Shown: positions 542 to 31,026, numbered from the stretch's first letter. The stretch is 32,000 nt of DNA from Candidatus Scalindua sp. (GCA_031316235.1 JALDRA010000001.1:2340001-2372000), one strand, 5' to 3'. Translations and numbers: made by a program. The notes: generated by a model not told the origin, from the sequence alone.

Positions 542-650
542 TATACTCATCTCATAATGGTTTTCGGATAAAATCCGAGAAAAAACGGAGCGAGTATATC
601 TTCACCAGGATTTGGTTTCCGGTAAAACCGAAAACCAAATCGGTTTTATA
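542..650 (+). repeat. Family-A mosaic palindromic repeat, copy A1 (short form, canonical orientation)
   Basis: The sequence TATACTCATCTCATAATGGTTTTCGGATAAAATCCGAGAAAAAACGGAGCGAGTATATCTTCACCAGGATTTGGTTTCCGGTAAAACCGAAAACCAAATCGGTTTTATA is near-identical to 11 other loci in the window. It lies about 110 nt upstream of the 760 CDS. Confidence 0.9.
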
Positions 651-759
651 ATTGATCTCTCCTCGCATTTTTGATTTTTTATTTACGTTTCCACCGCAAT
701 AAGTATCATACAAAAAATCGAACTGTTAGTTGTTTGTTGATGAGATGAGCTTTTCATTT

Positions 760-1737
760 ATGAAAAAAATAGTTATTTTATCAACAGGTATCGTTCTTGG
801 TTTGATTATTCTGCTGGCCATTCTGATAACCGTCAAAGACCGCATCATTAAATCCACTATAGAGATTGTTTCCAGGCAGGTTATGGGTGTTGAAACTGTT
901 GTCGATCAGGTTTCTCTGGGCATTATAAAGCAGTCAGTTTCCATCAGGGGTTTGCGGCTGTATCAGCCTGAATCGTTTCCTGAAGGGATATTTATTGATG
1001 TCACGGAGATCAGTGGGTCCTGTAGGATAGCATCGTTTCTAAGAAAAAAAAATCATATTCCCAAACTGGTTCTGAATATCAAAGAAGTAATCTTGATAAA
1101 GGATAAATCCGGAAATCTTAATGTCGATGCTTTAAAAATTGTCCGGGAAAAGGAAATCAAGACTCAGGATGAAAAAGCAGAAATAGCTTTCCAGATTGAT
1201 GAAATGATCCTTACAATTGATAAGGTTATCTACAAACAGTACAGTCAGGATGACAAGCCGGTCATTAAAGCTTTTGACATAGGAGTTAAGGACGAGAAAT
1301 ACGAAAATATTACCAGCCCGCAACAACTTGCCGGCAAAATTTTACAGACAGTTTTGGAGCCTATGGCAGCCAGGGCAGGATTGAAAAGCGCAGCTATCTA
1401 CGGTATTGCCTCGATAACCGGTATAGGAATGATCCCTGTGGCGGCAGGTGCTGTTCTTTTTGGCAAAGACCATGCCCTTACAGAGCTAGATCAGGATTCT
1501 CGGGTAGTATATGAAGCCTGTGTGGCAACGCTAAGGAAATTGGGAGATGTGAGCAAAGAGAATAAAGAGAACGGGATAATTAAAGGGAATGCAAGCGGTT
1601 GCAGCATTAGCATAGAGCTGACAAAAACAAAACATGACAAGATACAGGTAAAGGTGTCCGCCCGGAAACTACTTTGGCCGAAACCAAAGATTGCCGGTGG
1701 TATCCTGTACGAGATAACTCAAAACCTGAAGGATTAA
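760..1737 (+). CDS. Membrane-anchored hypothetical protein (AsmA/DUF748-like N-terminal region, DUF3568-like C-terminal region)
   Basis: Track ORF 730..1737. The ATG at 760 gives MKKIVILSTGIVLGLIILLAILI, an N-terminal TM helix; ATG 745 is an alternative. Family resemblance was judged by eye only. Confidence 0.7.
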   Translation: MKKIVILSTGIVLGLIILLAILITVKDRIIKSTIEIVSRQVMGVETVVDQVSLGIIKQSVSIRGLRLYQPESFPEGIFIDVTEISGSCRIASFLRKKNHIPKLVLNIKEVILIKDKSGNLNVDALKIVREKEIKTQDEKAEIAFQIDEMILTIDKVIYKQYSQDDKPVIKAFDIGVKDEKYENITSPQQLAGKILQTVLEPMAARAGLKSAAIYGIASITGIGMIPVAAGAVLFGKDHALTELDQDSRVVYEACVATLRKLGDVSKENKENGIIKGNASGCSISIELTKTKHDKIQVKVSARKLLWPKPKIAGGILYEITQNLKD

Positions 1738-1833
1738 AAAGCACTGTGTGGAATACTTAAGGCTACCGGTACGCATCACAGGTAAAACGGATCTTGCATT
1801 ATTTATAGTTTCGTAAAACTTAAAACATCAGAA

Positions 1834-1915
1834 TTCACCGGGATATTATCGGTTTTAGTATACTCACTCCGTTTTTTCTCGGATTTTATCCGAAACCCCT
1901 TATGAAATGAGTATA
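1834..1915 (-). repeat. Family-A repeat, copy A2 (rearranged: hairpin-deleted M2 module abutting an inverted M1 module)
   Basis: Positions 1834-1863 read TTCACCGGGATATTATCGGTTTTAGTATA. This is M2 in + orientation lacking the central hairpin. It is fused at the shared TATA to the reverse complement of M1 (TATACTCACTCCGTTTTTTCTCGGATTTTATCCGAAACCCCTTATGAAATGAGTATA, to 1915). Confidence 0.8.
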
Positions 1916-2097
1916 GTATGATGGGTGAGATGTGTTCTGCCCGGATGGATTATTGAGGATAAAACAAATTGGTGGGTTTGAAAATCATCAAAATTGTGGT
2001 AATTAATATGATATACATACAAAACGACTTATGTGCGTAAAAAGACCGTTTGAAATACTAGTGACTACTCTGTATTTATTGGAGATAAAAATGAAAT

Positions 2098-2406
2098 TTG
2101 ATCAGGCGTTTTTTTGTGGCCCTTTTTCTGGCTGCATGGATTGTCGGCGGTCCAGGCTGTGCGGGGTCATCTAAGCATGCAAGCACCGGGGAGTATATGG
2201 ATGATTCTATCATTACGACCAAGGTAAAGGCGGCAATATTTAATGATCCTGTGGCCAAGGTGTTCCAGGTGAATGTTGAAACTTTCAAGGGAGTCGTACA
2301 GTTGAGCGGCTTCGTGGATTCTCCGGAGGTAGCCGCCAGGGCCGTGGAAGCAGCGAGATCTGTCGGGGGAGTAAAGGAAGTTATAAACAAAATGTCCGTG
2401 AAATGA
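2098..2406 (+). CDS. BON-domain lipoprotein (OsmY-like)
   Basis: The TTG start gives MIRRFFVALFLAAWIVGGPGC, a lipoprotein-type signal with a Cys. The BON signature is DDSIITTKVKAAIFNDPVAKVFQVNVETFKGVVQLSGFVDSPEVAARAVEAARSVGGVKEV. The start codon is uncertain because ATG 2091 is out of frame. Confidence 0.85.
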   Translation: MIRRFFVALFLAAWIVGGPGCAGSSKHASTGEYMDDSIITTKVKAAIFNDPVAKVFQVNVETFKGVVQLSGFVDSPEVAARAVEAARSVGGVKEVINKMSVK

Positions 2407-2476
2407 ACCGGCTAAAAGCCAATGTGTTTTTGAATGTACTTTAATTTCTTATTCTTTTTTTAACGGAAGGATGAAT

Positions 2477-3203: not shown

Positions 3204-3770
3204 ATGGTAAAGAAATTTGTGTTAGGTCTGGCTTTTATTGGTGCATTGGTATTCGGTGTTTGTGCAGTAAATACTTTGTTGGTTGGCTCTGTTATGGCAA
3301 GTCATGAAGAGGGACATAAATGCGAAAAATGCGGACACTTGCCAACTGAACCAGAAAATGATTGTAAATGTGTATGTCACGCGAAGTGTAATAAGGTCGA
3401 TATTGTTCAGGTACCGGCTGTAGTTAAGTCTGCAATTGAGAAGGAAACTGCTGGCGGCACCGTCAAGGAAATAGTAAAAAAAGAGGCTGATGGCAAAGTG
3501 TGTTATGCGGTCAAGTATGTAGAGGACGGTATGGAAAAAACAGCCAAATTCACAGAAGAGGGCGCTGTTGTGGAATGCACGGGGGAAAAGGTCGAGATTG
3601 CTCAAGTACCGGCTGTGGTCAAGGCAGCGATCGAGAAGGAAACTGCTGGCGGCACCGTCAAGGAAATAGTGAAAAAAGAGGCCGATGGCAAAGTGTGCTA
3701 TGCAGTCAAGTATGTAGAGGATGGTATGGAAAAAACACTCAAACTCACAGAAGAAGGAAAAAGACAATAA
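3204..3770 (+). CDS. Secreted protein with Cys/His-rich segment and two tandem PepSY-like domains
   Basis: AGGAG RBS and a signal/TM segment (MVKKFVLGLAFIGALVFGVCAV). This is followed by HEEGHKCEKCGHLPTEPENDCKCVCHAKC and then two 65-aa units (VPAVVK.AIEKETAGGTVKEIVKKEADGKVCYAVKYVEDGMEKT) typical of PepSY-like/DUF2874 domains. Confidence 0.8.
   Translation: MVKKFVLGLAFIGALVFGVCAVNTLLVGSVMASHEEGHKCEKCGHLPTEPENDCKCVCHAKCNKVDIVQVPAVVKSAIEKETAGGTVKEIVKKEADGKVCYAVKYVEDGMEKTAKFTEEGAVVECTGEKVEIAQVPAVVKAAIEKETAGGTVKEIVKKEADGKVCYAVKYVEDGMEKTLKLTEEGKRQ
3396..3767 (+). repeat. Intragenic tandem duplication, period 195 bp (units 3396-3590 and 3591-3767)
   Basis: GTACCGGCTGT at 3411 recurs at 3606. The two units are highly similar at the DNA level, with scattered substitutions of all types. 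Confidence 0.9.
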
Positions 3771-4859: not shown

Positions 4860-5312
4860 ATGAAATCTCAAAGAATTTTCTGCCCGGTAATCATGGTTGC
4901 GGCGATTGCGATACTCGGTATTTCGTCAATATGTTTCGCTGAAACCTCAACTGACAAGACTACCATGGAAGAGGTGAAACAAGAGATGCAAGACGCGATT
5001 CGGGCGCTTAAAGAGTATGGTATTGATCAGCGTGATGAAGCGGTCAAGGACACGAAAGCCGCTTTAAACAGACTGGATAACCGTATCGAAGCGCTGGAAA
5101 CGCGTATCGACGACAACTGGGACACTATGAACGAGGCTGTTCGGGAAAAAACCCGCGCTACCCTGAAATCACTTCGAAAGCAGCGAACTCAGATGGCAGA
5201 ATGGTACGGCAGCCTGAAAAGCAGTTCGGCCGCTCTTCACTCTCAGCATCCTCGCTGTAGCTTAGGCTACACCTGCGGTCCTGGTCGGTCAGATCGACCA
5301 AATCTGACATAA
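4860..5312 (+). CDS. Secreted coiled-coil protein (paralog 3 of 3), C-terminus apparently replaced
   Basis: GGAGA RBS and the signal peptide MKSQRIFCPVIMVAAIAILGISSICFA. The helical region is related to the other two paralogs up to ...EWYGSLKSSSAA. The last ~28 aa (LHSQHPRCSLGYTCGPGRSDRPNLT) are unlike the family. Confidence 0.65.
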   Translation: MKSQRIFCPVIMVAAIAILGISSICFAETSTDKTTMEEVKQEMQDAIRALKEYGIDQRDEAVKDTKAALNRLDNRIEALETRIDDNWDTMNEAVREKTRATLKSLRKQRTQMAEWYGSLKSSSAALHSQHPRCSLGYTCGPGRSDRPNLT

Positions 5313-5426
5313 AACTGAGCGCGATAAAACAACAAGTTATTTTTTCCTGCACCCTAAGAGTTTTTTACATGAAGTCTGTATAAATCATTATTTAAACCGT
5401 TTGGTAAAATTGAAGGAGGCAATAGT

Positions 5427-5603
5427 ATGCTTTACTGGGCTGCGGTTTTTTTTATCATATCAATCGTTGCTGCTTTATTCGGATTTGCCGGGATTGCTGT
5501 CGCGGCGGCAGAGATAGCGAAAATACTTTTCTTTATTTTTTTCATTATATTTGTCTTCTTTTTGGTAACCGGCTTATTTAGGAGACGACGACCTCCGGTT
5601 TGA
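5427..5603 (+). CDS. DUF1328 / UPF0391 (YtjA-like) small membrane protein
   Basis: This ORF is absent from the track (58 aa). A GAAGGAGG RBS precedes ATG 5427, and the stop is TGA 5601-5603. [58 protein letters not shown] matches the UPF0391 pattern. Confidence 0.8.
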
Positions 5604-5701
5604 AATATTTTCCATCTAATTCTTTTTTTAAAGAAGAAACAAATTCTGAACCGATTTTATTATAAATGCATTTTAAACAGTTTAAACGACAGGAGCGTGA
5701 A

Positions 5702-7054
5702 ATGAAAAATATATTATTGAAGTATATTGGGGTCGTATTTGTGACTTTCGTTACGATGCCGGCTGTACGAGGTGGGACGGATGCGAAAGAGATGAAAAAG
5801 CAGGAATCCAGCTATATGCCGGTAATGATTACAGAACCATTTGAGACAGTTAGGGAACGGGATGTGGCAGAAAAACCCAAAGTGATGAGTAGACACATGA
5901 CGCTGCTTAGAGAAAGGTTTGATTTATTAGAGAAAACTGACTCGAACGCCACTATGTCCGGTGGTAAGCCGTTGCCTGTCGGTCCTACAGCAAAGTTAAG
6001 GAACGGCATGACCTGGGAGAGTTTAGGTTCATTGTCACCTGGAGAGATCAAGCAGAAGGGTGCTTTCCCTTATCCCCCACTGCCGCATGTCAAGCATGCT
6101 GTCGGTGGAATGGTCGTGGCTCCGATGCAACTGAAAACACACCCGGAACTTATCCGTTTTGATGTAGACTTTGATCTGCCGGAGGTTTATTTACCGGAAT
6201 TCCCACCTCCATTATATCTGATCTCACGGCCTGATCTGGGGGACGTTTCCGGTGGTGAAGAGATTACGATCAACAACTATTATGAGAAGCTGAACGGTAT
6301 ACTTACGCCGTTTCAGTTGGAAGGATTACGCCTTCTGGTCACGCCGGTGGCACAGCAGCAGTTTAACATTTCGGAAGACCGTAAGGCGGACACTGCGCAG
6401 GATGCCGTCTCATGCTTTACGTGTCACCCAAACGGTCATACCAGCGGTGTCTTTCATCTCAATCCTGACAACCGGCCTCAGGAGACGCGTTTCCGTATCG
6501 ATACCGTCAGCCTGCGCGGTGTGAATATCCAACATTTTTTTGGTTCCAAACGTGCTTTGAGATCGCTGGAGGACTTCAGTGAGGTTGAAGCAAAAACAGC
6601 CTATTTTGACGGTGATCTTGTAATTGCGATGAAAAAAGGTGCCCGTCGTTTCACACGGGAAGAAATCGTGGCCATGGCCGCGATGCAAAATATGATCGCT
6701 TTTCCACCGGCTCCAAAGCTTGATATCCAGGGCCGCTTGAATCCGGAGAAGGCCACAGAATCTGAGTTGCGTGGTGAAAAGATTTTTATGATGTCCTGTG
6801 CCTCCTGCCATCCGGCTCCATATTATACGGACAACCTCGCGCATGACCTCCAGGTGGAACGCTTCTACGATGGACGCGCCGAGGGTCTGATAAAGACCTT
6901 TGCCCTGCGCGGAATCAAGGACTCTCCTCCGTACATGCACGATGGGAGGTGTCTGACCCTGGAAGATACAGTCGAGTTTTTCAACCTGATTCAAGGGCTT
7001 AAACTGTCAGCACAGCAGAAAACTGATCTGGTGGCTTTCATGCGAACGCTATAA
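5702..7054 (+). CDS. Di-haem cytochrome c peroxidase / MauG-family protein
   Basis: An AGGAG RBS lies 6 nt before ATG 5702, with a signal peptide. There are two CXXCH motifs (CFTCH, CASCH). The family-typical C-terminal block is LRGIKDSPPYMHDGRCLTLEDTVEFFN. Confidence 0.8.
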   Translation: MKNILLKYIGVVFVTFVTMPAVRGGTDAKEMKKQESSYMPVMITEPFETVRERDVAEKPKVMSRHMTLLRERFDLLEKTDSNATMSGGKPLPVGPTAKLRNGMTWESLGSLSPGEIKQKGAFPYPPLPHVKHAVGGMVVAPMQLKTHPELIRFDVDFDLPEVYLPEFPPPLYLISRPDLGDVSGGEEITINNYYEKLNGILTPFQLEGLRLLVTPVAQQQFNISEDRKADTAQDAVSCFTCHPNGHTSGVFHLNPDNRPQETRFRIDTVSLRGVNIQHFFGSKRALRSLEDFSEVEAKTAYFDGDLVIAMKKGARRFTREEIVAMAAMQNMIAFPPAPKLDIQGRLNPEKATESELRGEKIFMMSCASCHPAPYYTDNLAHDLQVERFYDGRAEGLIKTFALRGIKDSPPYMHDGRCLTLEDTVEFFNLIQGLKLSAQQKTDLVAFMRTL

Positions 7055-7112
7055 TTGAAACAGTATTTGTTGACAGAAAATCCATTGTCCACGAATAATA
7101 AATGCCTGACGC

Positions 7113-7183
7113 GGCTTTGGTTTTAGAATTTTCTAAAACCAAAGCCTGATTGCTGGTATCCCCGGACAAAAGACGTTGAAGAA
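7113..7183 (-). repeat. Family-A repeat, partial copy A12 (variant M2 hairpin + 27-nt insert module)
   Basis: GGCTTTGGTTTTAGAA-TT-TTCTAAAACCAAAGCC is a perfect 34-bp palindrome at 7113-7146. It is followed by TGATTGCTGGTATCCCCGGACAAAAGACGTTGAAG, matching the reverse complement of the A11 segment GGGGATACCGGCAATCAGGCTCTGGTTTT. It lies between convergent genes. Confidence 0.7.
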
Positions 7184-7357
7184 TTTCTTATGATGATGTT
7201 TTGGAAAAGCAATAAATATAGCTATCAAAGCCATTTACGGGGCTTACTTTAACATTTTGTTTGGGAGGGTTACTTGATAGCTTTTTTAAAGGTTCCGGGA
7301 TAGTTGCCTTATTATTTATGATATTTACCGTAACAGTCTATCTTTGTCGAAGTAGTA

Positions 7358-7831
7358 TCAGAATCCATATACTGGTCGCAATTGTTCATGCGTTGGTATA
7401 TCATTGTAAGCTTCTCCTCTTGGGCCAACCCACTGATTACCGGAACGGTGTAAATATACTGGGGTAGTGCTTCCATTCGTATTTGTAATGTTTACGACCG
7501 TCGAATTCGCATCCCGATCCACTGCGTCCAATCGCCTGTTCACCGACGCATTCTGTTGTTTCATCGCGTCTTTCTGATTACCCATGACACCCCCTAAAAG
7601 ACCGCCTATGAGAGCACCGGCTATAGCACCCTCAGCCGTAGATATACCCTCAATCTTGTTTCCGGCAAGAGCACCGGTAAGAGCACCGGCTCCTGCTCCA
7701 ACTCCAGCTCCTGTTCCCGTAGCTGAACCAGGATGTTCATACACGCAGCCGGTAAAAAGTGAAAAAAGTAACCATATACAACAGCCAGATGATATATACT
7801 TTTTAAGAAGCTGTAGATTCATTATTTTCAT
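7358..7831 (-). CDS. Glycine-zipper (YMGG-like) lipoprotein
   Basis: Lipobox LFSLFTGC. Gly-zipper tract GTGAGVGAGAGALTGALAGN...GAIAGALIGGLLGGVMG. The gene sits 2 nt downstream of the EF-hand gene and is likely co-transcribed with it. Confidence 0.8.
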   Translation of the reverse strand: MKIMNLQLLKKYISSGCCIWLLFSLFTGCVYEHPGSATGTGAGVGAGAGALTGALAGNKIEGISTAEGAIAGALIGGLLGGVMGNQKDAMKQQNASVNRRLDAVDRDANSTVVNITNTNGSTTPVYLHRSGNQWVGPRGEAYNDIPTHEQLRPVYGF

Positions 7832-7833
7832 CT

Positions 7834-8304
7834 TTATTCCTCCAAATCAAATTCAAATAACTGAAGAGATCCATCATCATCGGTATCCAGAGTCTTAAAC
7901 ACGTTATCCAGTATCATCTTACTACGACGATTAGGATTTTTGAACTCCTCCAATGTCAGCTTTCCGTCCTGATTCACATCTATGCGAGTAAACATCTCAT
8001 CTCCTTGTTGACCGATTTCAACAGCATCCCATTCTTCGCGGGAGATACTGTTATCGCCATTTGTGTCGAGGTATCTGAAGGAAAACACTTCGATATAGTT
8101 AAAAAATTCTACATTTGTGATTTTTCCATCATGATCTTGATCAACTAAAGCGAAAGTATTGGCAATAACTATATCTGCATCTTTAGACGCTCGGACCTTG
8201 TGACGTTTTTTTTGTAGGGTTTTAGCGTCAACCGACATACTTGCCGCGATGCAAAGACAAACCAGAATGCCAATGATTCTCAAAATAATCAATTTATGTC
8301 GCAT
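7834..8304 (-). CDS. Secreted EF-hand calcium-binding protein (4 EF-hand loops)
   Basis: GGAGA RBS and a signal peptide. The four canonical loops are DQDHDGKITNVEF, DTNGDNSISREEW, DVNQDGKLTLEEF and DTDDDGSLQLFEF. Confidence 0.85.
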   Translation of the reverse strand: MRHKLIILRIIGILVCLCIAASMSVDAKTLQKKRHKVRASKDADIVIANTFALVDQDHDGKITNVEFFNYIEVFSFRYLDTNGDNSISREEWDAVEIGQQGDEMFTRIDVNQDGKLTLEEFKNPNRRSKMILDNVFKTLDTDDDGSLQLFEFDLEE

Positions 8305-8707
8305 GATTCTTCTCCTCTCTGAAATTCAGGCAAATGTATTAAGTAGCAAGCACTTCTGTATAACATTTACACAATCATAGACTAAATAACTTTGTTATCA
8401 ACCAATACTTTACGTTATAAGATTAAACGAAACAAAGTATAAAACCAATAAAGTCTTGCTGTTGTCGCTCATAACTTATCAGTGTCATATGGATAAAAAA
8501 CACACGACCTTTTCTTGATTACTGTACACCACCCTTTAATATATTGAAGTTGGTAACTTCGCCAGTATGATAAAACAAAAAAAAGAAGGGAAAATGCACC
8601 GGTTCCTCAGATGTTCAATCTGTAACAATCATTCGGATTACTCTAACCATTCTATCATTGATTGTCAATAGTGAACTGCTTCCCGAAAACTGATACAGTT
8701 GTAAGGT

Positions 8708-8819
8708 TATACTCATCTCATACTGGATTTCGGATAAAATCCGAGATAAAAATGAGCGAGGATACCTTCACCAGGATTTGATTTCCGGTAAAACCGAAAA
8801 CCAAATCGGTTTTAGTATA
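8708..8819 (+). repeat. Family-A repeat, copy A3 (short form)
   Basis: Full-length 112-nt match running TATACTCATCTCATACTGGATTTCGGATAAAATCCGAG...CCAAATCGGTTTTAGTATA. Confidence 0.9.
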
Positions 8820-8910
8820 GCATTACGTTATATACCTGGATTAAGAAAGAGGGAAAAACCGTTTCCGTTTCATTGAGTTGCTTGCAATGATTTAGCACTA
8901 TTTTATTTGA

Positions 8911-9052
8911 TATCCAGAGACTTGTTTCATCATAGATTTCCGCTAAAAACATGCCTGCCCGAAAAGGTACCCGTTCGAACGGAGGAGCCGGGCGGAAATG
9001 ACAGCTTTGATGCAATAGATTAAACGCGCAAAAACCTAACCGGACGTTACTG
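8911..9052 (+). mobile_element. Family-B MITE, copy B1 (left end truncated)
   Basis: Shares TATCCAGAGAC.TGTTTCATCATAGATT.CCGCTAAAAACATGC and the right TIR GCAAAAACCTAACCGGACGTTACTG with B2. No left TIR is present. Confidence 0.75.
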
Positions 9053-9097
9053 ATTATAGATAAGAAAATGAGACAAGGAAGGATAGTTTGAGAATTC

Positions 9098-9150
9098 ACA
9101 AAATGTGTAACTCCTCTCGCCCTATCGGTTCCCGCCGTTACACATTTTGT
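9098..9150. promoter_or_regulatory. 14-bp inverted repeat ACAAAATGTGTAAC / GTTACACATTTTGT with 25-nt spacer
   Basis: The arms are perfect complements. The repeat lies in the long ORF-poor spacer, upstream of a TTGACA hexamer at 9195. Confidence 0.4.
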
Positions 9151-9194
9151 ATTGTACATTAAGTAATGCATCTAAAAAATAACAAAAAATGGTC

Positions 9195-9222
9195 TTGACA
9201 AACCCAGCTACCGTATTATACC
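9195..9222 (+). promoter_or_regulatory. Weak sigma70-like promoter candidate
   Basis: TTGACA (9195-9200), a 16-nt spacer, then TATACC (9217-9222). The -10 lacks the final T, so support is low. Confidence 0.25.
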
Positions 9223-9422
9223 CTACTATGTGGTTTTTTTAACGCAATATATCTTCTCCATTTTCGTGTACTATTTGAAAAATAATCAATTAGCTGCCGT
9301 TTCGGGTAAGGACAAGTTACGCGAGTTATGCATCATCGAAGAGTGTATCAGATTACATACGTTGCCGTCAGTTGAAAGCATCAGAAAGAGAGAAGTCGAT
9401 TGGGAGAAAGTTTATAAAAATT

Positions 9423-9588
9423 CAGTAGTGTCCGGTTAGGTTTTTGCCTAGACGACTTTTGTCATACCCGAACGTCTTTATCGGGTATCCAGAGACTCGT
9501 TTCATCATAGATTCCCGCTAAAAACATGCGGGAATAACAGTTTTTGGGCAATAAATTAAATACGCAAAAACCTAACCAGACACTGTTG
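9423..9588 (+). mobile_element. Family-B MITE, copy B2 (complete, 166 bp)
   Basis: The left TIR CAGTAGTGTCCGGTTAGGTTTTTGC is the near-perfect reverse complement of the right TIR GCAAAAACCTAACCAGACACTGTTG. A perfect 9-bp direct repeat ATAAAAATT flanks it (9414-9422 and 9589-9597). There is no ORF. Internal hairpins are ATACCCGA...TCGGGTAT and ATTCCCGC...GCGGGAAT. Confidence 0.9.
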
Positions 9589-9634
9589 ATAAAAATTAAC
9601 CTTTTTAAGAGTTCAGAAATGGAGAAAAATACCC

Positions 9635-10183
9635 ATGAGAGAGATGACAGAACAGAATATGATTAATGCTTTTGGTGGTGAAAGTCAGGCCTTCATGCGC
9701 TATACCCATTTTGCGGATCTAGCCGATAGTGAAGGCTATCCGAATGTTTCTCGATTATTCAGGGCAATTGCCCATGCAGAAACGATTCATGCGAGAAGCC
9801 ATTATGAAACGTTAAAATATTTGAACGGTGGCTTTGTGGCGAATAGTGCCGCTACGTTTGGCCCTGGTGAAACGAAGAAAAATCTGGAACTTGCTATTAT
9901 GGGGGAAGAGTTTGAAATCAATGAGATGTACCCTGTTTTTATTGAAGTTGCAAAATTTCAGAATGAAAATGATGCCCAACTGAGTTTTGAAAGGGCTTTT
10001 GGAACAGAAAAAATGCATAAAAAACTGTTTGATAAGGCGAAAGAAGCAGTTAATAACAACAGTGATCCAAAACTTGACGCAATCCAGGTATGTTCCGTTT
10101 GCGGCTACACTTTGGAGGGTGATGCTCCTGATACGTGCCCTCTTTGTAACGCTACCAAAGAAAAATTTGAAACATTTGTTTAA
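9635..10183 (+). CDS. rbr: Rubrerythrin
   Basis: The ferritin-like di-iron domain (E..ESQAFMRY...AHAETIHA...EEFEINEMYP...EKMH) is followed by a C-terminal rubredoxin-like motif, CSVCGY...CPLCN. Confidence 0.9.
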   Translation: MREMTEQNMINAFGGESQAFMRYTHFADLADSEGYPNVSRLFRAIAHAETIHARSHYETLKYLNGGFVANSAATFGPGETKKNLELAIMGEEFEINEMYPVFIEVAKFQNENDAQLSFERAFGTEKMHKKLFDKAKEAVNNNSDPKLDAIQVCSVCGYTLEGDAPDTCPLCNATKEKFETFV

Positions 10184-10280
10184 AACGAGTCACGTAGGGG
10201 AGGCAATGCCTGTCGCCATTTATAATTTATAGTGAGACGAGAAATTTAGAAGGTGTGAATTATGGAAATGTGTCAACATA

Positions 10281-10299
10281 GTCCGGTCAGGTTTTTTCG
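10281..10299 (+). repeat. Possible solo family-B TIR fragment
   Basis: GTCCGGTCAGGTTTTTTCG resembles the B left TIR core GTCCGGTTAGGTTTTTGC. The match is short. Confidence 0.3.
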
Positions 10300-10495
10300 T
10301 AATAAGTTATTGACAAAATAAATCCTGGGTTACATTTATTCACCCGGACATTTCTGTGATCGCCTCAAGAGCTTCTTCCGGGAATATAAGCCTCAAAAAA
10401 CTGAAACTCTCCGGAACTTCGAGTATATTCCGGTATTGTTTCGTTCAATCTCAGATGATATCGAACTTCTTCAACCTGTGAGAAATTTGAAGCAT

Positions 10496-11104
10496 TCAAT
10501 TCTTAAGGGTTTTCTCCCTCATACTTTGAATCAGCAAATTGAAAGGTGATTTCATCAGGAAACTGTTAAATTGGCTACGATAATTGTTTACGAGACTAAC
10601 CCCTTCAATGGTAACATCATAAATCTGTAATTTTCCATCGTTGTTTGTCAGGCTGAAGTCAACGGCGAGTGCTTTTCCTGCGCCTGCAATAAAATTGGTC
10701 TGGACTTTATAGTATCTACCGTCCTGCCTTTCCCGTAAAAACTCTACCCTTTCGCCGGAATAGGTATCTGTTTTCTCTAAATAACTGCTTTTAACAAGTT
10801 CGGTAAATAATTCCACATACTCCTTTATTTCTTCAGGAGAGCGGTCTTTCCAGTACCGGCCGAGTGCCCTCTTCGCCATCTCTTCCATATTAAAGATAGA
10901 CCTGATCTCCTCCCATAATTTTTTCCTGCGTTCCGGTGCCTTATCTTTCCCTGCCAATGAGGGGTCTTTAATGATTTGTAAGCCGTTTTCAATGGTCTGC
11001 TTGACAAGGTCTCCCGCCTCTCCCGCCCATACAAAGGTTGATGTTACGGACATCATGATGAATAGAGCGACAGTAATGGTAAATATTTTTTTCCTGTTCT
11101 TCAT
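10496..11104 (-). CDS. mlaC: Phospholipid-binding periplasmic protein MlaC (Ttg2D family)
   Basis: A signal peptide is present. The motifs ALGRYWKDRSPEEIKEYVELFTELVKSSY and YDVTIEGVSLVNNYRSQF are typical of MlaC. It is the last gene of the mlaEFDC cluster. Confidence 0.85.
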   Translation of the reverse strand: MKNRKKIFTITVALFIMMSVTSTFVWAGEAGDLVKQTIENGLQIIKDPSLAGKDKAPERRKKLWEEIRSIFNMEEMAKRALGRYWKDRSPEEIKEYVELFTELVKSSYLEKTDTYSGERVEFLRERQDGRYYKVQTNFIAGAGKALAVDFSLTNNDGKLQIYDVTIEGVSLVNNYRSQFNSFLMKSPFNLLIQSMREKTLKN

Positions 11105-11156
11105 GTCTTGAATTCCTTTTATTTAAATTGTCTGGGTAAACACAGCTTTCTTCATA

Positions 11157-11295
11157 TATACTAAAACCGATCTGGTTTTCGGTTTTACCGGAAACCAGAT
11201 CCTGGTAAAGGTATCCCCGGACAAAAAACGCCGAGGACTTTACTCGCTCCGCTTTTACCCGGATTTTATCCGAAAACCATTATGAGATGAGTATA
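11157..11295 (-). repeat. Family-A repeat, copy A4 (long form with 27-nt insert), between mlaD and mlaC
   Basis: The reverse complement reads TATACTCATCTCATAATGGTTTTCGGATAAAATCCGGGTAAAAGCGGAGCGAGTAAAGTCCTCGGCGTTTTTTGTCCGGGGATACCTTTACCAGGATCTGGTTTCCGGTAAAACCGAAAACCAGATCGGTTTTAGTATA. Confidence 0.9.
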
Positions 11296-11392
11296 CATAA
11301 GGGTACTTCAATTATACATGCCCTGAAATTTCAGGAATCATTTTGCAATTTTATCGCTGCCATCAAAAACCAGACCGGGGCTATCATCCAGA

Positions 11393-11842: not shown

Positions 11843-11871
11843 AATTATTCTCTTTCTGTCATCACATTATG

Positions 11872-11983
11872 TATACTAAAAACGATCTGGTTTCCGGTTT
11901 TACCGGATACCAGATCCTGGTGAAGGTATACTCGCTCAAATTTATCTCGGATTTTATCCGAAATCCAGTATGAGATGAGTATA
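11872..11983 (-). repeat. Family-A repeat, copy A5 (short form), between mlaF and mlaD
   Basis: Full-length copy. Its M1 end (11983) abuts the mlaF stop codon (11984-11986). Its M2 end is 29 nt from the mlaD ATG. Confidence 0.9.
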
Positions 11984-13520: not shown

Positions 13521-13612
13521 ACAATTTTCCCCAGTACCTTAATTAAACCATTAAATATGAGAGCTGTCAAGTTGGGCAAATGACTTACCGGTCTTCCCTA
13601 AACCTGTTGAGA

Positions 13613-13724
13613 TATACTAAAACCGATTTGGTTTTCGGTTTTACCGGAAACCAAATCTTGGTGAAGGTATACTCGCACAATTTTATCTCGGATTTTATCC
13701 GAAAACCATTATGAGATGAGTATA
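13613..13724 (-). repeat. Family-A repeat, copy A6 (short form), between xfp and mlaE
   Basis: A full-length 112-nt copy, lying 64 nt after the xfp stop and 92 nt before the mlaE ATG. Confidence 0.9.
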
Positions 13725-13788
13725 AAATTGATCGCAATTGCAACCGGCAATAATCCTGTAACGCGGGTTATTACCAGAGCAGTGTTCC

Positions 13789-17195: not shown

Positions 17196-17349
17196 AAAAA
17201 TATTGCGTTTTGTGATTTTGATGGTATTTTAAATTTCTTGAACGGTAAGGGCATTATTGTACCAGACAGAATTCCTAATACGGAGTACAATATATCTCAA
17301 ACTGGGTAACTTATCAAGTGGCTCTGTAATCATTTCTATTGATATGAAG

Positions 17350-17462
17350 TATACTCATCTTATAAGGGTTTTTCGATAAAATCAGAGAAAAAAGGGAACA
17401 GGTATACAGGTAACCAGGCTTTGGTTTGGTGAAAAAACTAAAACCAAATCGGTTTTAGTATA
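17350..17462 (+). repeat. Family-A repeat, copy A7 (diverged, variant M2 hairpin)
   Basis: The sequence runs TATACTCATCTTATAAGGGTTTTTCGATAAAATCAGAGAAAAAAGGGAACAGGTATACAGGTAACCAGGCTTTGGTTTGGTGAAAAAACTAAAACCAAATCGGTTTTAGTATA. It ends 32 nt before the ATPase GTG start. Confidence 0.8.
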
Positions 17463-17494: not shown

Positions 17495-20212
17495 GTGGCT
17501 GACGTAAATCAGATAGATGACAGAAAGAGTATCCCCTGGCATGCCAGGGGCATCGAGACGGTATTTTCCGATAGTGCGAGTCAGCCAGAAGGACTGGCGG
17601 AGGCGGAGGCAGAGCAGCGTTTGTTAAAACACGGGCCTAATAAACTGACACCTCCCGGGAAACGGAGCCTGGTATCACGGCTTTTCGCGCAGATAAACAA
17701 TGTACTCATCTACGTGCTTCTCGGTTCAGCACTTATTACTGCATTGCTTCGCCACTGGTTTGATTCAGGGATTATCTTTGGCGTGGTTATCTTAAACGCG
17801 CTCATCGGATTCATTCAGGAGGGTAAAGCGGAAAAGGCCCTGGATGCTATTCGGGACATGCTCTCTCTCCAGGCATCCGTATTGAGAGATAAAAAACGTA
17901 TCATGCTTCCCGCAGACCGCGTAGTACCGGGTGACATAGTGTTTCTGCAATCCGGGGATAAGGTTCCGGCAGATATCCGGTTATTTAAGGTGAGGGATCT
18001 GCGTATTGATGAATCTGCGCTCACCGGGGAGTCTGTTCCGGTAGAAAAGACAACGCTCCCTGTGGACAGGGATAAAACGGTGGGCGACAGAACCTGCATG
18101 GCTTTTTCCGGTACCTTTGTAACCTATGGCCAGGGGCAGGGAGTTGTTGTCGGCACCGGTGATGATACAGAGATCGGAAGAATCAGCTCAATGCTTGCAC
18201 AGGTTGCGCCTTTAACCACCCGATTACTCAAACAGATGTCAGAATTCGGGCGTCAATTGACCGTGGCAATTGTCTCCATAGCTATCGCAACGTTTCTCTT
18301 CGGTATGTTTGTAAGAAGTTACTCCTTTGTGGATATGTTCATGGCAAGTGTCGGCCTTTTTGTCGCGGCAATTCCCGAGGGACTGCCCGCAATCATTTCC
18401 ATAGCACTGGCAATTGGTGTCCAGTCGATGGCACGGAGGAAGGCCATTATACGGCGTCTTCCGGCAGTGGAAACCCTCGGTTCCGTTACGGTTATCTGTT
18501 CTGACAAGACAGGAACCTTGACACGTAATGAGATGACGGTTCAGACGGTTGTTACGGTGAACAATACCTTTGATGTCAGCGGGGTTGGCTATGACCCCCA
18601 TGGGGGCTTTTCCTTGAAGGGAAAAGAGGCCTCCTTAAAGGATTACCCTGAAATAGGAGATATAGCGCGTTCCGTCCTTCTCTGTAATGATGCGACATTG
18701 AATGAAATTGAGGGAAAATGGTGCATGCAGGGTGACCCTACCGAGGGAGCGTTGATTACCCTGGCGAAAAAGGCGGGTATAGAACACTCATTTGAAAATG
18801 AAAATGAAAATGTACCGCGTGTCGATACCATTCCGTTTGAATCGGAGCACCGCTTCATGGCAACGCTGCATCACGACCATACCGGTCACCGGTTTATCTA
18901 CCTGAAAGGTGCCCCGGAGCGGGTATTAGAACTCTGTACTCATCAGCGGTGTTACGGTAAAAAAGCAGCCATAAACAATTCCTACTGGCAGGATAAAATT
19001 CTGGATATTGCTAGCAGGGGACAACGAGTGATCGCCGTGGCATATAAAGCCGTCAAAAGGGACAAACAACAGATCAATTTTGCTGATGTAGAGGAAGGTA
19101 TGACACTGCTCGGATTTATCGGAATAATTGATCCTCCCAGTGAAGAGGCAATGGCAGCGATAAAACAGTGTAAAAATGCGGGTATCAGGGTGAAAATGAT
19201 CACCGGCGACCACGCGTTGACAGCACAGGTCATAGGTGCTCAGCTGGGTATCGGGGATAATAAGATGGTACTGACGGGAAATGAATTAGATACATTCACG
19301 GATGATCAGTTAAGTGAGAAAGTACAGACCGTGGATATATTTGCCCGGGTAAGTCCGGCGCACAAGTTACGTCTCGTAGAGATATTACAGCGTAATGGCG
19401 AAGTGGTGGCAATGACGGGAGACGGAGTGAATGATGCGCCTGCACTGAAACGGGCGGATGTTGGTATTGCCATGGGTATCAAGGGTACCGAGGTATCGAA
19501 AGAGGCTTCAGAAATGGTGTTGACAGATGATAATTTCTCTTCCATTGTAAGTGCCGTGGAAGAAGGCAGGAGAGTTTATGATAACATAAAAAAATCGATT
19601 GTCTTTATTCTGCCTACCAATGTTGGTGAAGCAGGAATGATTATTGTTGCCATACTGTCAGGTCGAATGCTGCCGATCACTCCTATTCAGATCCTCTGGG
19701 TTAATATGATTACGGCTGTTACCCTTTGCTTATCGCTGGTATTTGAGCAACCTGAACATGGAACAATGAATAAACCGCCACGGGACCCCAGAGAACCGAT
19801 TCTCTCGCTTTTCTTAGCCTGGAGAATCCTCTTTGTCTCTTTCATCATTATCCTGGGTACCTTCGGTCTCTTTTTATGGGATAGCCTCCACAGTGCTTCC
19901 CTCGAAGAGTCAAGAACCATGGCGGTAAATACCCTTGTGATGTTTGAGGTCTTTTATCTCTTCAATATCCGTTATCTGAGAAGATCAGTTTTGAGCGTAA
20001 ACGGATTATTCGGGAATCGGTACGTCTTGATTGCAGTCGCGGCAACGATCGTAATCCAGATGGGATTTACGTATGCCCCTCCGATGCAGCACATTTTCGG
20101 GACTGCTCCCCTTACGTGGAAAAACTGGATATTTATCGTTATGGTCGCGTCTTCAGTGTTTATTTTTGTAGAATTGGAAAAGATATTACTCAAAAAAAGG
20201 AGTAACGGTTAA
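17495..20212 (+). CDS. P2-type cation-transporting ATPase (Ca2+-ATPase-like)
   Basis: An AAAGGAGGA RBS precedes the GTG start. Motifs are TGES, the IPEGLP TM4 motif, CSDKTGTLT, MITGD and TGDGVNDAPALK, across 905 aa. Confidence 0.9.
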   Translation: MADVNQIDDRKSIPWHARGIETVFSDSASQPEGLAEAEAEQRLLKHGPNKLTPPGKRSLVSRLFAQINNVLIYVLLGSALITALLRHWFDSGIIFGVVILNALIGFIQEGKAEKALDAIRDMLSLQASVLRDKKRIMLPADRVVPGDIVFLQSGDKVPADIRLFKVRDLRIDESALTGESVPVEKTTLPVDRDKTVGDRTCMAFSGTFVTYGQGQGVVVGTGDDTEIGRISSMLAQVAPLTTRLLKQMSEFGRQLTVAIVSIAIATFLFGMFVRSYSFVDMFMASVGLFVAAIPEGLPAIISIALAIGVQSMARRKAIIRRLPAVETLGSVTVICSDKTGTLTRNEMTVQTVVTVNNTFDVSGVGYDPHGGFSLKGKEASLKDYPEIGDIARSVLLCNDATLNEIEGKWCMQGDPTEGALITLAKKAGIEHSFENENENVPRVDTIPFESEHRFMATLHHDHTGHRFIYLKGAPERVLELCTHQRCYGKKAAINNSYWQDKILDIASRGQRVIAVAYKAVKRDKQQINFADVEEGMTLLGFIGIIDPPSEEAMAAIKQCKNAGIRVKMITGDHALTAQVIGAQLGIGDNKMVLTGNELDTFTDDQLSEKVQTVDIFARVSPAHKLRLVEILQRNGEVVAMTGDGVNDAPALKRADVGIAMGIKGTEVSKEASEMVLTDDNFSSIVSAVEEGRRVYDNIKKSIVFILPTNVGEAGMIIVAILSGRMLPITPIQILWVNMITAVTLCLSLVFEQPEHGTMNKPPRDPREPILSLFLAWRILFVSFIIILGTFGLFLWDSLHSASLEESRTMAVNTLVMFEVFYLFNIRYLRRSVLSVNGLFGNRYVLIAVAATIVIQMGFTYAPPMQHIFGTAPLTWKNWIFIVMVASSVFIFVELEKILLKKRSNG

Positions 20213-21512: not shown

Positions 21513-21638
21513 TATGCTAAAACCGATTTGGTTTCCGGTTTTACCGGAAACCAAATCTTGGTGAAGGTATCTCCGGACAAAAAGCGTCGAGGACTTTACT
21601 CGCTCAATTTTTTCTCGGATTTTATCCGAAAACCATTA
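21513..21638 (-). repeat. Family-A repeat, copy A8 (long form, M1 terminus missing), in sodB leader
   Basis: The sequence is TATGCTAAAACCGATTTGGTTTCCGGTTTTACCGGAAACCAAATCTTGGTGAAGGTATCTCCGGACAAAAAGCGTCGAGGACTTTACTCGCTCAATTTTTTCTCGGATTTTATCCGAAAACCATTA. Homology stops about 23 nt before the sodB ATG, where the RBS GGAGG begins. Confidence 0.85.
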
Positions 21639-27937: not shown

Positions 27938-27960
27938 TGATTAACGGGTCGCAGAGCAGG

Positions 27961-27985
27961 TATACTCATTTTATAATGGTTTTCG
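27961..27985 (+). repeat. Family-A repeat fragment A9 (left terminus only)
   Basis: TATACTCATTTTATAATGGTTTTCG matches the first 25 nt of the family-A consensus. It lies in the 64-bp spacer between gltA and the CCC gene. Confidence 0.6.
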
Positions 27986-28001
27986 TTCACGCACTGATTC
28001 T

Positions 28002-29300: not shown

Positions 29301-29398
29301 TTTTAATAACCTTTTGTGATTTTGCGTTATACTAATGATAAGTTAAGAGGTTGATTATTGAACAGATACGGATATTCCTTTACAAATTTTTTACACTA

Positions 29399-29538
29399 TG
29401 TACTCATCTTACGATGGTTTTCGGATAAAATCCGAGATAAAATTGAGCGAGCACAAGTCCTCGGCGTTTTTTGTCCGGGGTTACCTTCACCACGGTTTGG
29501 TTTCCGGTAAAACCGGAAACCAAACCGGTTTCAGTATA
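29399..29538 (+). repeat. Family-A repeat, copy A10 (long form)
   Basis: The sequence is TGTACTCATCTTACGATGGTTTTCGGATAAAATCCGAGATAAAATTGAGCGAGCACAAGTCCTCGGCGTTTTTTGTCCGGGGTTACCTTCACCACGGTTTGGTTTCCGGTAAAACCGGAAACCAAACCGGTTTCAGTATA. It contains a perfect 16-bp M2 stem. Confidence 0.9.
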
Positions 29539-29727
29539 GCATAGATATTTTTATCCTGGTAGTTAAATCGGAGTTCACCCTCTTTACGATAGAGGTAAAA
29601 GGGAGATGTCTGGATTCCACGGACCGGCAAAATTCCTGAATGTTTTCATTCCCTGTCACTTGATATCATGGCTTTGCCTGTAGCAGATTTTAGCGTGTTA
29701 TCCCGGTATAGACAATTAATTTTTTAT

Positions 29728-29756
29728 TTGAAAGATAACAGGCTACAAGGTACTAT
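29728..29756 (+). promoter_or_regulatory. Sigma70-like promoter candidate for the ankyrin gene
   Basis: TTGAAA (29728-29733), a 17-nt spacer, then TACTAT (29751-29756). An AT-rich tract lies upstream. Confidence 0.35.
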
Positions 29757-29830
29757 GCTGGAGAGTTCTGTAAATGAATAGTCAGTTACGGAAGCCTTCC
29801 GGAAAAAGAGGAGTTTTTAGAGGAGAAATC

Positions 29831-30913
29831 ATGTCCTTTGTTGAAATAGCTCAGACAGGGAATATCGATCAATTAAAAAGACTTATTGCCAAAGGGGTCG
29901 ATGTCAATGACAGAGACGAATACGGTAATACGGCTTTACATAAAGCCGTTCAAATGGGCCCTAAAGCATTGATTAAATTCCTTGTAGCAAATGGTGCTGA
30001 TGTAAATGCGCGAAATAAAAAGAATGAAGTACCCTTACACCTTATTACAGAAGGGCCCCTGGACATCCTTAAGATGGCAAAATTATTACTATCTGCAGGT
30101 GCGGATGTGAATGCCAGTGATGCACAGGAAAAAACACCATTACACTGGGCAGTTGAACGGAATTACTACGACATGGTTAAGGTGCTCGTGAAAAAAGGAG
30201 CTGGGGTAAATGTAAAGGACAAAAGTGGTGATGCACCCCTGCATCAAGCAGCTCAAGGGGGTAATAAGGCCATAGCCAAGTTTCTCATTAAAAAGGGAGC
30301 TGATATCAATTTACAGAATAATAATGGCAAGGCCCCGATAGAGAATGCTGTTCATAATAAACATAAGCGTTTGATCAAATTGTTTATTGCATATGGTGTA
30401 GATATAAATACCAAATTTAAGGATGGACAAACAATGCTCCATCTGGCTGCTCAGGAAAATATGTCAAGGATTGTTAAACTCCTTATTTCCAGAGGAGCTG
30501 ATGTTCAAGGGCAGGATAAAAACGGCAAGACCCCTTTGCATATAGCGGCTTACGAGGGACATGAGAGTATGATCAAATTGCTGTTGAACAGAGGGGCGGA
30601 CATTAATGCGGAGGATGAACAGGGCAACACCCCTTTATATTTCGTGATCAAGCAGGGGAATTATGACATAATGAAATTACTCATTATTAAGGGCGCGGAC
30701 ATAAACCACAGAAACAAGAGCGGCGAAACACCATTACACTGGTCGGTTGATTGTGGGACAAAGGATCAACAAAAATTGATAAAGGTGCTTTTAAAGTATA
30801 AAGTTCATATTAACGTAAAAGATGTGAATGGCGAAACACCTCTCTACTGGGCAAACCAGAGAGGCCATAACGACATTGTTAAAATACTCGAGAGATCAGG
30901 AGCTAAAGAGTAG
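29831..30913 (+). CDS. Ankyrin-repeat protein (about 10-11 ANK repeats)
   Basis: An AGGAG RBS lies 5 nt before ATG 29831. A 33-aa periodicity carries G.TPLH.A...G....V..LL..GADVN throughout. No signal peptide is evident. Confidence 0.88.
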   Translation: MSFVEIAQTGNIDQLKRLIAKGVDVNDRDEYGNTALHKAVQMGPKALIKFLVANGADVNARNKKNEVPLHLITEGPLDILKMAKLLLSAGADVNASDAQEKTPLHWAVERNYYDMVKVLVKKGAGVNVKDKSGDAPLHQAAQGGNKAIAKFLIKKGADINLQNNNGKAPIENAVHNKHKRLIKLFIAYGVDINTKFKDGQTMLHLAAQENMSRIVKLLISRGADVQGQDKNGKTPLHIAAYEGHESMIKLLLNRGADINAEDEQGNTPLYFVIKQGNYDIMKLLIIKGADINHRNKSGETPLHWSVDCGTKDQQKLIKVLLKYKVHINVKDVNGETPLYWANQRGHNDIVKILERSGAKE

Positions 30914-30914
30914 T

Positions 30915-31026
30915 TATACTCATCTCATAATGGTTTTCGGACAAAATCCGGCGAAAAAAGGAGCGAGTAAGGTCCTCGGCGTTTTTTGTCCGGGGATACC
31001 GGCAATCAGGCTCTGGTTTTGGTACA
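30915..31026 (+). repeat. Family-A repeat, copy A11 (long form M1 + insert; variant/degenerate M2)
   Basis: It starts 1 nt after the ankyrin TAG stop. The sequence is TATACTCATCTCATAATGGTTTTCGGACAAAATCCGGCGAAAAAAGGAGCGAGTAAGGTCCTCGGCGTTTTTTGTCCGGGGATACCGGCAATCAGGCTCTGGTTTTGG. The right boundary is uncertain. Confidence 0.8.

Follow-up and report, generated by a model that had tools for sequence, protein, structure and literature searches.

We analyzed a 32,000-nt stretch of the genome of Candidatus Scalindua sp. (GCA_031316235.1 JALDRA010000001.1:2340001-2372000; hereafter, the window), in which a ~112-nt repeat, here called family A, occurs between genes at a density of 12 copies per 32 kb. 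With a probability of roughly 80%, family A is a non-autonomous DNA transposon, i.e. a bacterial miniature inverted-repeat transposable element (MITE) that would be mobilized in trans by an IS630-type transposase, because it possesses terminal inverted repeats (TIRs), a TA duplication, diverse TA targets, no coding capacity, dispersed copies and recent polymorphism. Bacterial MITEs have been defined as elements of <200 bp with TIRs, TA termini, a target-site duplication (TSD) and stable stem-loops (PMC2229807). Family A is non-coding and shorter than 200 bp, its TIRs carry a terminal TA, its insertions are flanked by TSDs, and its multiple copies vary between genomes. Of the explanations considered in an initial annotation made from the sequence of the window, a non-autonomous mobile element was the one borne out: relative to empty sites, filled sites contain the element and one additional TA, and even sequences that are 95-96% identical differ in the copies that they carry.

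The basic, short form consists of two modules, M1 and M2, and a long form carries a hairpin insert, I1, at their junction. We used the 21-nt M1 core to scan a single genome of each species, and more than 120 blocks of 8 kb were among the matches listed. The sampled loci, designated by L-numbers (950 kb), together with the window form the full family sample of ~1 Mb, to which the results below refer.

Insertion at TA and recent activity

For each full copy, the 70-nt flanks on either side were joined and searched against the sampled DNA; in all, at least 12 comparisons of filled and empty sites were obtained from host repeats, unique DNA and orthologous sites. In every clean case, the empty site contained one TA and the filled site read TA-[TACT...AGTA]-TA. 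The TA or TATA brackets first described as merely compatible with insertion at TA are therefore real and, as the empty sites show, represent TSDs; copies read TATACT...AGTATA because insertion at TA duplicates this dinucleotide. Clean insertions were found in family B, a separate repeat described below, at the site ccttgTAcctggg (L006:7587, L013:6937, L060:515 and L114:2748). A fifth insertion in family B (L112:544) was at another site and was not clean, as the uninterrupted copies have CA, not TA, at this position. Two insertions in a further repeat, family C (L050:5565 and L010:5995), used different TAs, 3 bp apart, and were therefore independent events, and two others were in unique DNA (L113:6827 compared with L033, and L086:5265 compared with L107).

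Orthologous loci, obtained through homologues of MlaE, included a syntenic sister contig, L201, which is 95-96% identical to the window. In the mlaF-mlaD spacer, the window and L201 carry a copy, whereas L202, L203 and L205 have an empty site; the empty site of L202 reads AAAG-TA-AATAATGT and the filled site ATAG-TA[element]TA-CATAATGT. The mlaD-mlaC spacer exhibited the same pattern, but here the empty L202 site has TG where the window has the duplicated TA. The site of the window copy at 13613 was empty in Scalindua sp. RBC_AMX3 (L020:1312-1387). Empty sites, which the initial annotation had proposed to look for in related strains, were thus found in L201, L202, L203, L205 and RBC_AMX3. Within 20 kb, the window and L201 exhibited two presence/absence differences: copy 21513-21638 is found only in the window and is missing from the orthologous L201 site (1758-1770), and copy L201:6201-6312 is found only in L201, the corresponding empty window site being TTTCATT-TA-TCGTAATC. 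Because copies differ between the window and L201, family A has been active recently, and because they differ between strains that are nearly identical, they are usable as strain markers.

Across 70 distinct insertions, TA was the sole invariant, and the target context was AT-rich and weakly palindromic, with C depleted at position –2 and G at position +2. This diversity bears on the idea that family A is the non-autonomous partner of an IS110-type (bridge-RNA-guided) recombinase, for which TA would be the 2-nt recombination core. IS110 insertion leaves a 2-nt core on each side, so that a dinucleotide on both sides is the expected trace of such an event, and the IS110-family elements of these genomes sit in the I1 loop of family A with CT on both sides. 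However, a single bridge RNA directs an IS110 recombinase to one specific sequence of ~11-14 nt, whereas the insertion sites of family A have only TA in common; moreover, a bridge RNA could not be encoded by an element as short as family A, and the IS110 element found here uses a CT core and another, fixed target. Because its targets have only TA in common, family A does not resemble an IS110 element, and we give this idea, which target-site diversity brings close to refutation, hardly any credence.

Organization of the element

Alignment placed M1 at positions 1-57 and M2 at positions 56-112 of the consensus, and the element proper spans ~108 nt, TACTCATC...TTTTAGTA. The ~112-nt consensus, the two modules and their hairpins, all recognized in the initial annotation, were recovered by alignment and DNA folding. 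The same applies to the imperfect TIR at the outer ends (copy ends TATACT...AGTATA; end sequence for comparison with the ends of insertion sequences (ISs), TACTCATCTCATAATGGTTTTCGG), which is 28 nt long: by inspection, the left end and the reverse complement of the right end match at 21/28 positions, the value from alignment being 19/30. The parts common to both ends are TATACT and a perfectly matching box, TGGTTTTCGG, at positions 17-26. M1 and M2 were homologous to each other, with an alignment score of 47 compared with 18.3 ± 5.8 in shuffled sequences (0/2000 reached 47), and both carry the loop TAAAA. M1 and M2 are thus diverged copies of one ~57-nt palindromic unit, and since their loops run in the identical direction, family A is a head-to-tail dimer of this unit.

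The copies vary in size from 57 to 172 nt. The long form contains I1, a 27-nt hairpin insert (AAGTCCTCGGCGTTTTTTGTCCGGGGA) with a full or shortened loop, at the M1/M2 junction, and two linker variants occur (CCTTCACC and AACTGCAACC). Copies of up to 172 nt carry GC-rich hairpins of 27-45 nt, here called I2, in the M2 loop, the M1 loop or the linker. A mini form of 57 nt, in which the left terminus is fused to the M2 hairpin (L001:2896, L001:2558 and L059:2682), can be explained by a deletion between the two TGGTTTYCGG-TAAAA boxes, and an M1-only form is found at 1859-1915 of the window. When folded as single-stranded DNA, both strands of the short form and one strand each of the long and mini forms were far more stable than shuffled sequences (z, –3.9 to –6.7). 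In the test of the module hairpins, DNA fold energies were –21 to –23 kcal/mol (z, –4.9 to –6.7).

Homologous M1 and M2 modules that form two subterminal hairpins with TAAAA loops in the same direction, and a modular mosaic with nested GC-rich mini-hairpins resembling repetitive extragenic palindromic (REP) sequences, might alternatively indicate a palindrome of the type found in REPs and bacterial interspersed mosaic elements (BIMEs), or one derived from IS200/IS605. Here an HUH (Y1) single-strand transposase, e.g. a REP-associated tyrosine transposase (RAYT), would recognize the hairpins of M1 and M2 on one strand, with the TA on either side representing a motif for cleavage or targeting and no duplication; that no DDE partner was found also favors this alternative. 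The targets of IS200/IS605 elements, however, are asymmetric, and these elements lack TIRs and a duplication, whereas family A has a 28-nt TIR, a TA at each side in place of the single TA of the empty site, a symmetric target, and orientations interleaved within 32 kb with no strand bias; in addition, a conserved GTAG-type head is absent. No Y1 transposase was seen among the open reading frames (ORFs) listed, which were those with inverted repeats of at least 18 nt, seven of them scanned; this is weak evidence, because RAYTs are typically flanked by shorter repeats. Because TIRs and a TSD are present, along with a symmetric TA target, family A falls outside both REP/BIME with RAYT and IS200/IS605, and the likeness to BIMEs suggested initially was not supported. 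We consider this alternative unlikely.

Putative transposase

TA duplication combined with TA-only specificity is a hallmark of Tc1/mariner/IS630 transposases. We therefore infer an IS630-type DDE transposase from the TIRs, the symmetry of the target and the duplicated TA; on the same kind of evidence, the pneumococcal repeat RUP has been attributed to IS630-Spn1 (PMC2229807). A Tc1/mariner/IS630-type enzyme would act in trans on family A, binding both 28-nt ends as double-stranded DNA, and the element would be excised and then integrated at a TA in AT-rich intergenic DNA (cut-and-paste). The hairpins would be mainly a by-product of the palindromic, transposase-box architecture, although in copies located in operons, e.g. 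mlaFEDC, they would be present in the mRNA and may alter its processing or stability.

Several observations weigh against this interpretation. A full-length IS or a RAYT-like gene with the same termini, as suggested in the initial annotation, was sought, and no transposase gene with family A termini was found in ~1 Mb of sampled Scalindua DNA; the only ISs seen were IS110, ISL3 and IS481/IS3-like, all with unrelated ends. No IS630-like ORF flanked by TIRs was found in the sampled loci, whole genomes not having been searched for it, and the IS630 assignment is accordingly drawn solely from the three features named above (TA duplication, TIRs and target symmetry). Furthermore, both hairpin loops point the same way, which would suit a hairpin-recognizing single-strand transposase, and some paired stem changes and G-T wobbles hint at selection on the folded strand; for a mechanism acting purely on double strands, such selection would not be required.

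Candidate transposases were examined among ORFs of 220-520 aa in the sampled DNA by checking for flanking inverted repeats; those that had such repeats proved to be genes located between MITE copies, one ISL3 and one IS481/IS3-like IS. ORF 730-1737 of the window, which is flanked by inverted copies, was rejected as AsmA/DUF748-like. Pairs of M1-only and M2-only units ~1.7 kb apart (L065 and L104) were likewise rejected as an autonomous element, since the interior is an IS110-family IS inserted in the I1 loop.

Paired substitutions and gene conversion

A further possibility is that family A is a functional structured or cis-acting RNA module (acting in stability, RNase III processing or termination), with mobility being secondary. 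The folds are stable (z of about –4 to –7), and the paired stem changes on which the initial annotation had based the claim of a maintained structure are present: ATCTGG..CCAGAT at 11157 and 11872, GGTTTGG..CCAAACC at 29399, and a perfect 16-bp stem at 7113-7146. As the top of the M2 stem varies, this stem was missed by RNAalifold alone, and a hand-defined structure of M1, I1 and M2 was tested instead. Among 105 distinct copies, 92.5% of cells were paired. Changes on both sides of a pair were observed in 21 cells compared with 8.5 ± 2.3 in shuffled alignments (0/500 shuffles reached 21) and affected nine pairs compared with 5.1 expected (3/500 shuffles), although related sequences can show such an excess without structural constraint. 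Because the family is 94% identical, the test is low in power, and the covariation signal is weak to moderate. The U-G wobbles of M1 and I1 are kept on the plus strand, which is also in line with an RNA function, and Correia elements are known RNase III substrates (reference list of PMC2229807).

However, the stem top is imperfect (CCAG/ACCG) in the M2 form that is commonest in the haplotype table, one-sided stem changes mostly remain uncompensated (the 5΄-arm change GCTTTGG in 8/9 copies), and the M2 wobble position favors the strand opposite to that of M1 and I1. Compensated stems are few, namely those of 11157, 11872, 29399 and 7113 in the window, L092:1977 and L009:5685. Furthermore, copies 11157 and 11872 are only 700 nt apart, and their L201 orthologues lack the T-A to C-G change, their differences from the window copies being clustered in patches of subfamily type; at all of these patch positions, M1 of the L201 orthologue of 11157 equals M1 of window copy 11872. 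This patch exchange, together with orthologues lacking the change, points to gene conversion, and the two ATCTGG..CCAGAT copies are therefore not independent. Gene conversion, rather than independent compensation, accounts for at least part of the paired-change pattern, and the copies evolve in concert; hairpin-templated palindrome repair could also yield paired changes without selection. The fold is a real, conserved property of the element, whereas selection on an RNA or single-stranded DNA fold is only weakly supported. Hence the initial claim held in that the paired changes are real and in excess, but they are few, stem changes are mostly uncompensated, and gene conversion is evident.

Distribution and genomic context

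Family A was found in at least five genomes of Scalinduaceae: Scalindua sp. SCAELEC01, Scalindua sp. RBC_AMX3, the Scalinduaceae metagenome-assembled genome CBDCUS01, Ca. Anammoxibacter OFTM134 and Scalindua sp. OFTM1. A 21-mer match in Parcubacteria (L035) was rejected as a chance match, with no element there. In the ~1 Mb, nhmmer detected 219 segments, which were merged into 189 elements, 143 of them spanning the whole profile (single full-length hits numbered 115), and copies beyond the window are thus far from negligible. Outside the seed hits, the density was ~0.06-0.08 per kb (SCAELEC01 and RBC_AMX3) compared with 0.34 per kb in the window, and eight full copies were present in 20.5 kb of L201. 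No family A copies were found in the sampled regions of the more distant Scalindua relatives L202, L203, L205 and L206. A scan of metagenome contigs with the phosphoketolase protein yielded only matches that were at most 80% identical and from unrelated organisms, with neither family A nor synteny to the window.

The full copies were intergenic in 132/143 cases, in DNA that is ~69% coding, and occupied tandem (61), divergent (24) and convergent (16) spacers. Copies are also found inside operons, e.g. mlaFEDC, and relative to transcription 39 were co-oriented and 22 anti-oriented. This bias, although weak, and the operon locations would suit an RNA module; on the other hand, one third of the operon copies are anti-oriented, many copies lie in divergent or convergent spacers, and neither promoter nor terminator prediction gave a consistent signal in the copies. 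Rfam yielded no match at the gathering score over the window and none even at E ≤ 1 over 11100-13800, and presence or absence between near-identical genomes indicates that the copies are dispensable. We therefore regard an RNA module as improbable, slightly more so than a REP- or IS200-type origin, and retain the MITE interpretation. Searches of plasmids and viral contigs yielded no family A copies, and a literature search found nothing on repeats in Scalindua or anammox genomes. Family A, which the initial annotation had been unable to recognize, is thus previously undescribed, being without a match in Rfam, plasmids, viral contigs and the searched literature.

Comparison with known repeat families

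In mechanism and in long/short anatomy, family A is closest to the Correia/NEMIS elements and to RUP, and it belongs to neither. Correia elements (also NEMIS or CREE) of Neisseria are similar in size (~107 and 155 bp) and have long and short forms produced by an internal segment (PMC2229807); the analogy drawn in the initial annotation is apt in this respect. Their TIRs start with TATAG... and those of family A with TATACT..., both beginning with the duplicated TA of a TA TSD; they are present in hundreds of intergenic copies that are often co-transcribed with their neighbors, the transcripts folding into a long stem-loop; and, as for family A, their cognate transposase is not known (PMC2229807). 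However, family A has no sequence similarity to them beyond the terminal TATA (the Correia TIR is TATAGYGGATTAA...), and its host belongs to the Planctomycetota (anammox), not to Neisseria, so that consensus, TIR and host genus all place it outside the Correia/NEMIS family. It is also a tandem dimer with two separate hairpins, whereas a Correia element forms one long TIR-paired stem, and it carries nested GC-rich mini-hairpins and is an IS110 target.

RUP of pneumococcus likewise is ~107 bp long, non-coding and highly conserved, which suggests recent activity, has TIRs and inserts at TA, and it tends to enter other mobile or repeated elements (PMC2229807), as family A is nested in families B and C. 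In contrast to family A, for which none was found in the sampled Scalindua DNA, an IS630-family IS with matching TIRs is known for RUP, and the two share no sequence similarity. REP/BIME systems with RAYT (Escherichia coli and Pseudomonas) resemble family A in forming dense intergenic palindrome mosaics and mRNA hairpins and in being IS110 targets. REPs, however, are 20-40 nt long and lack the TIR and TSD that family A has; the nested I2 mini-hairpins are more REP-like than family A itself.

Family A is therefore a MITE family of anammox bacteria that is modular, occurs at very high density and has been active recently; it extends the Correia-/RUP-type class and opens no new one. Anammox bacteria are important in the global nitrogen cycle and, with few exceptions, are known solely through metagenome-assembled genomes. 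Family A probably breaks short-read assemblies, with which the end of one contig is consistent: the only public contig with the exact citrate synthase of the window (L207, Logan contig SRR28338161_387933, 2174 nt) ends ~140 bp upstream of the citrate synthase gene, on the side of copy 29399-29538.

Copies in the window

The 23-nt M2 core matched seven window loci with at most three mismatches (nine matches, because two perfect palindromes match both strands), compared with none expected from 100 dinucleotide-preserving shuffles, and a repeat search yielded direct and inverted pairs with arms of 107-113 nt and 89-94% identity. An nhmmer profile built from five full copies detected 11 loci at E < 1e-3 and the 25-nt fragment 27961-27985 at E = 0.26. 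It found no further copies in the window even at E ≤ 10; the earlier list of twelve intergenic loci, all of which we found at or within a few bases of the positions given there, is therefore complete. As also noted earlier, about half of the spacers longer than 100 nt (10/20) contain a copy, both orientations occur, and no copy contains an ORF. The genes of the window encode, among others, a phosphoketolase, an octahaem protein similar to hydroxylamine oxidoreductase (HAO-like), citrate synthase, the mlaFEDC operon and a Ca-ATPase. In addition to nhmmer, by which all of the following copies were detected, the repeat search and alignment identified those at 542, 7111, 8708, 13613, 27961 and 30915, the repeat search that at 1851, alignment those at 11157, 11872, 17350 and 21513, and alignment with the M2-core search that at 29399.

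Full-length short forms (M1 and M2) are found at five places. Copy 542..653 (plus strand), located 80 nt upstream of the AsmA/DUF748-like gene 730-1737, has a degenerate right terminus, TTTTATAATT in place of TTTTAGTATA, and its L201 orthologue (18953-19065) is ~90% identical, with patchy differences. Copy 8708..8819 (plus strand) has TA on its flanks. Copy 11872..11983 (minus strand) lies between mlaF and mlaD, directly 3΄ of the mlaF stop codon, and has the same paired M2 change, ATCTGG..CCAGAT, as copy 11157. Copy 13613..13724 (minus strand), between mlaE and the phosphoketolase gene, is 98% identical to its orthologue L201:9579-9690. The diverged copy 17350..17462 (plus strand), in a divergent spacer upstream of a Ca-type P-type ATPase gene, has an M1 inner stem of TTCGAT/ATCAGA and an M2 top of GGTG-AAAAA-ACTA, and is ~96% identical to its orthologue L201:5815-5926.

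The 27-nt insert, assigned initially to copies A4, A8, A10, A11 and partial A12, is indeed carried by the corresponding copies 11157, 21513, 29399, 30915 and 7113. Copy 11157..11295 (minus strand), a full-length long form between mlaD and mlaC, has the paired ATCTGG..CCAGAT change in its M2 stem and patchy differences from its L201 orthologue; as described above, L201 also has a copy in the orthologous spacer, which is empty in L202, L203 and L205. Copy 29399..29538 (plus strand), also full-length, is located between the divergently oriented citrate synthase and ankyrin-repeat genes and has a fully paired M2 stem, GGTTTGG..CCAAACC. In copy 21513..21638 (minus strand), 24 nt upstream of a superoxide dismutase gene, the M1 terminus is truncated by ~13 nt, and in copy 30915..31026 (plus strand), whose start follows the stop codon of the ankyrin-repeat gene by one base, M2 is either degenerate or truncated. 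Copy 7111..7186 (minus strand) is partial, consisting of the 3΄ part of I1 and the M2 hairpin, the latter rebuilt as the perfect 16-bp stem GGCTTTGGTTTTAGAA/TTCTAAAACCAAAGCC (7113-7146), and lacks M1 and both termini. The M1-only locus 1851..1915 (minus strand) contains a 57-nt unit, TATACTC...GAGTATA (1859-1915), which shares TATA with an adjoining plus-strand remnant of an M2 right end (~1845-1861), and 27961..27985 (plus strand) is a 25-nt left-terminus fragment, TATACTCATTTTATAATGGTTTTCG.

Nested hairpins, IS110 insertions and other repeats

The I2 hairpins (GC-rich, 27-45 nt, ends CCYGCC...GRCRGG) comprise at least three sequence types (I2a, I2b and I2c) and are located exactly in the M1 and M2 loops, as well as in the linker, within unrelated repeat families and nested in each other. 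The hairpins adjoin YAA, with no visible target duplication. Within family A they are found at L079:5305-5446, L044:196-337, L032:999-1138, L050:4659-4824, L039:300-471, L040:3494-3659, L016:6374 and L042:4527, and outside it at L007:2977, L040:4040, L106:5667, L057:494, L086:5496 and L084:1385. From this placement, I2 hairpins may be independently mobile 'nano-elements'. To our knowledge, the only parallel for loop-inserting nano-elements is provided by the small dispersed repeats (SDRs) of cyanobacteria; Elhai et al. (2008) reportedly described Nostocaceae SDRs as hairpin inserts of ~21-45 nt in the loops of MITE-like and unrelated repeats. This likeness concerns the I2 hairpins, not family A, and the SDRs differ in host and sequence.

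An IS110-family IS of ~1.7 kb (Pfam DEDD_Tnp_IS110 and Transposase_20) is present twice in RBC_AMX3 (L065:4510-6215 and L104:3243-4950). The two copies are 99.7% identical and are inserted in different family A copies at the identical point of the I1 loop, GGCGC-CT|IS|CT-TTTGTCC, a target module also present in window copies 11157-11295, 21513-21638, 29399-29538 and 30915-31026. IS621, for comparison, targets REPs. The shared insertion point suggests site-specific, bridge-RNA-type targeting of a MITE, and family A would thus supply a natural target of an IS110-family recombinase. Speculatively, Scalindua might harbor a layered community of hairpin elements, of which family A would be the most visible tier, with I2 mobile into extruded loops and I1 acting as a dedicated landing site for IS110 (bridge-RNA-type); we regard this picture as tentative and rather doubtful.

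Family B is a separate repeat of ~120 nt (...GTTGCTGCAACAATTACGTAATCCTCACGTACTTGAGTACGCTCCGGTTACGTAATTATTTCGCGCCTTGTACCTGGGCAG...), abundant in SCAELEC01 and absent from the window. It occurs at L001:314-434, L018:4571-4693, L073:1084-1204 and ~60 more places in the loci, and its ccttgTAcctggg site is palindromic and has been hit repeatedly by family A. Other dispersed repeats of the window are likewise unrelated to family A: 5225-5359 matches places in L036, L081 and L033 at 96-98% identity; 9429-9581, which has 15 matches in the loci, forms one repeat with 8902-8954; and a further repeat is found at 8926-9063, 9501-9599 and 17082-17126.

Between the window and L201, several small insertion polymorphisms were observed. 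A ~165-nt element in the mlaD-mlaC spacer of L201 (11989-12153), with an I1-like hairpin, GTCCCTGGACAAAAAATACCAGGGAC, differs from the window; a 44-nt hairpin, TAGGGCCCAGG...CTGGGCCTA, on the reverse strand of L201 (~6130-6175) is polymorphic with respect to the window; and a ~130-nt insert (~17085-17215) is found in the window only. These polymorphisms indicate that several families of small elements are currently active. A larger difference concerns 5234-10313 of the window compared with L201:13157-14024: ~5 kb, including a di-haem peroxidase-like gene (5666-7054) and copies 7111 and 8708, are missing from L201, and the breakpoints lie in repeat-rich spacers. Finally, the window contains a 170-nt duplication (3393-3562 and 3588-3757; 195 nt apart, 89% identity) within ORF 3204-3770, which appears to be a repeat internal to a coding sequence.

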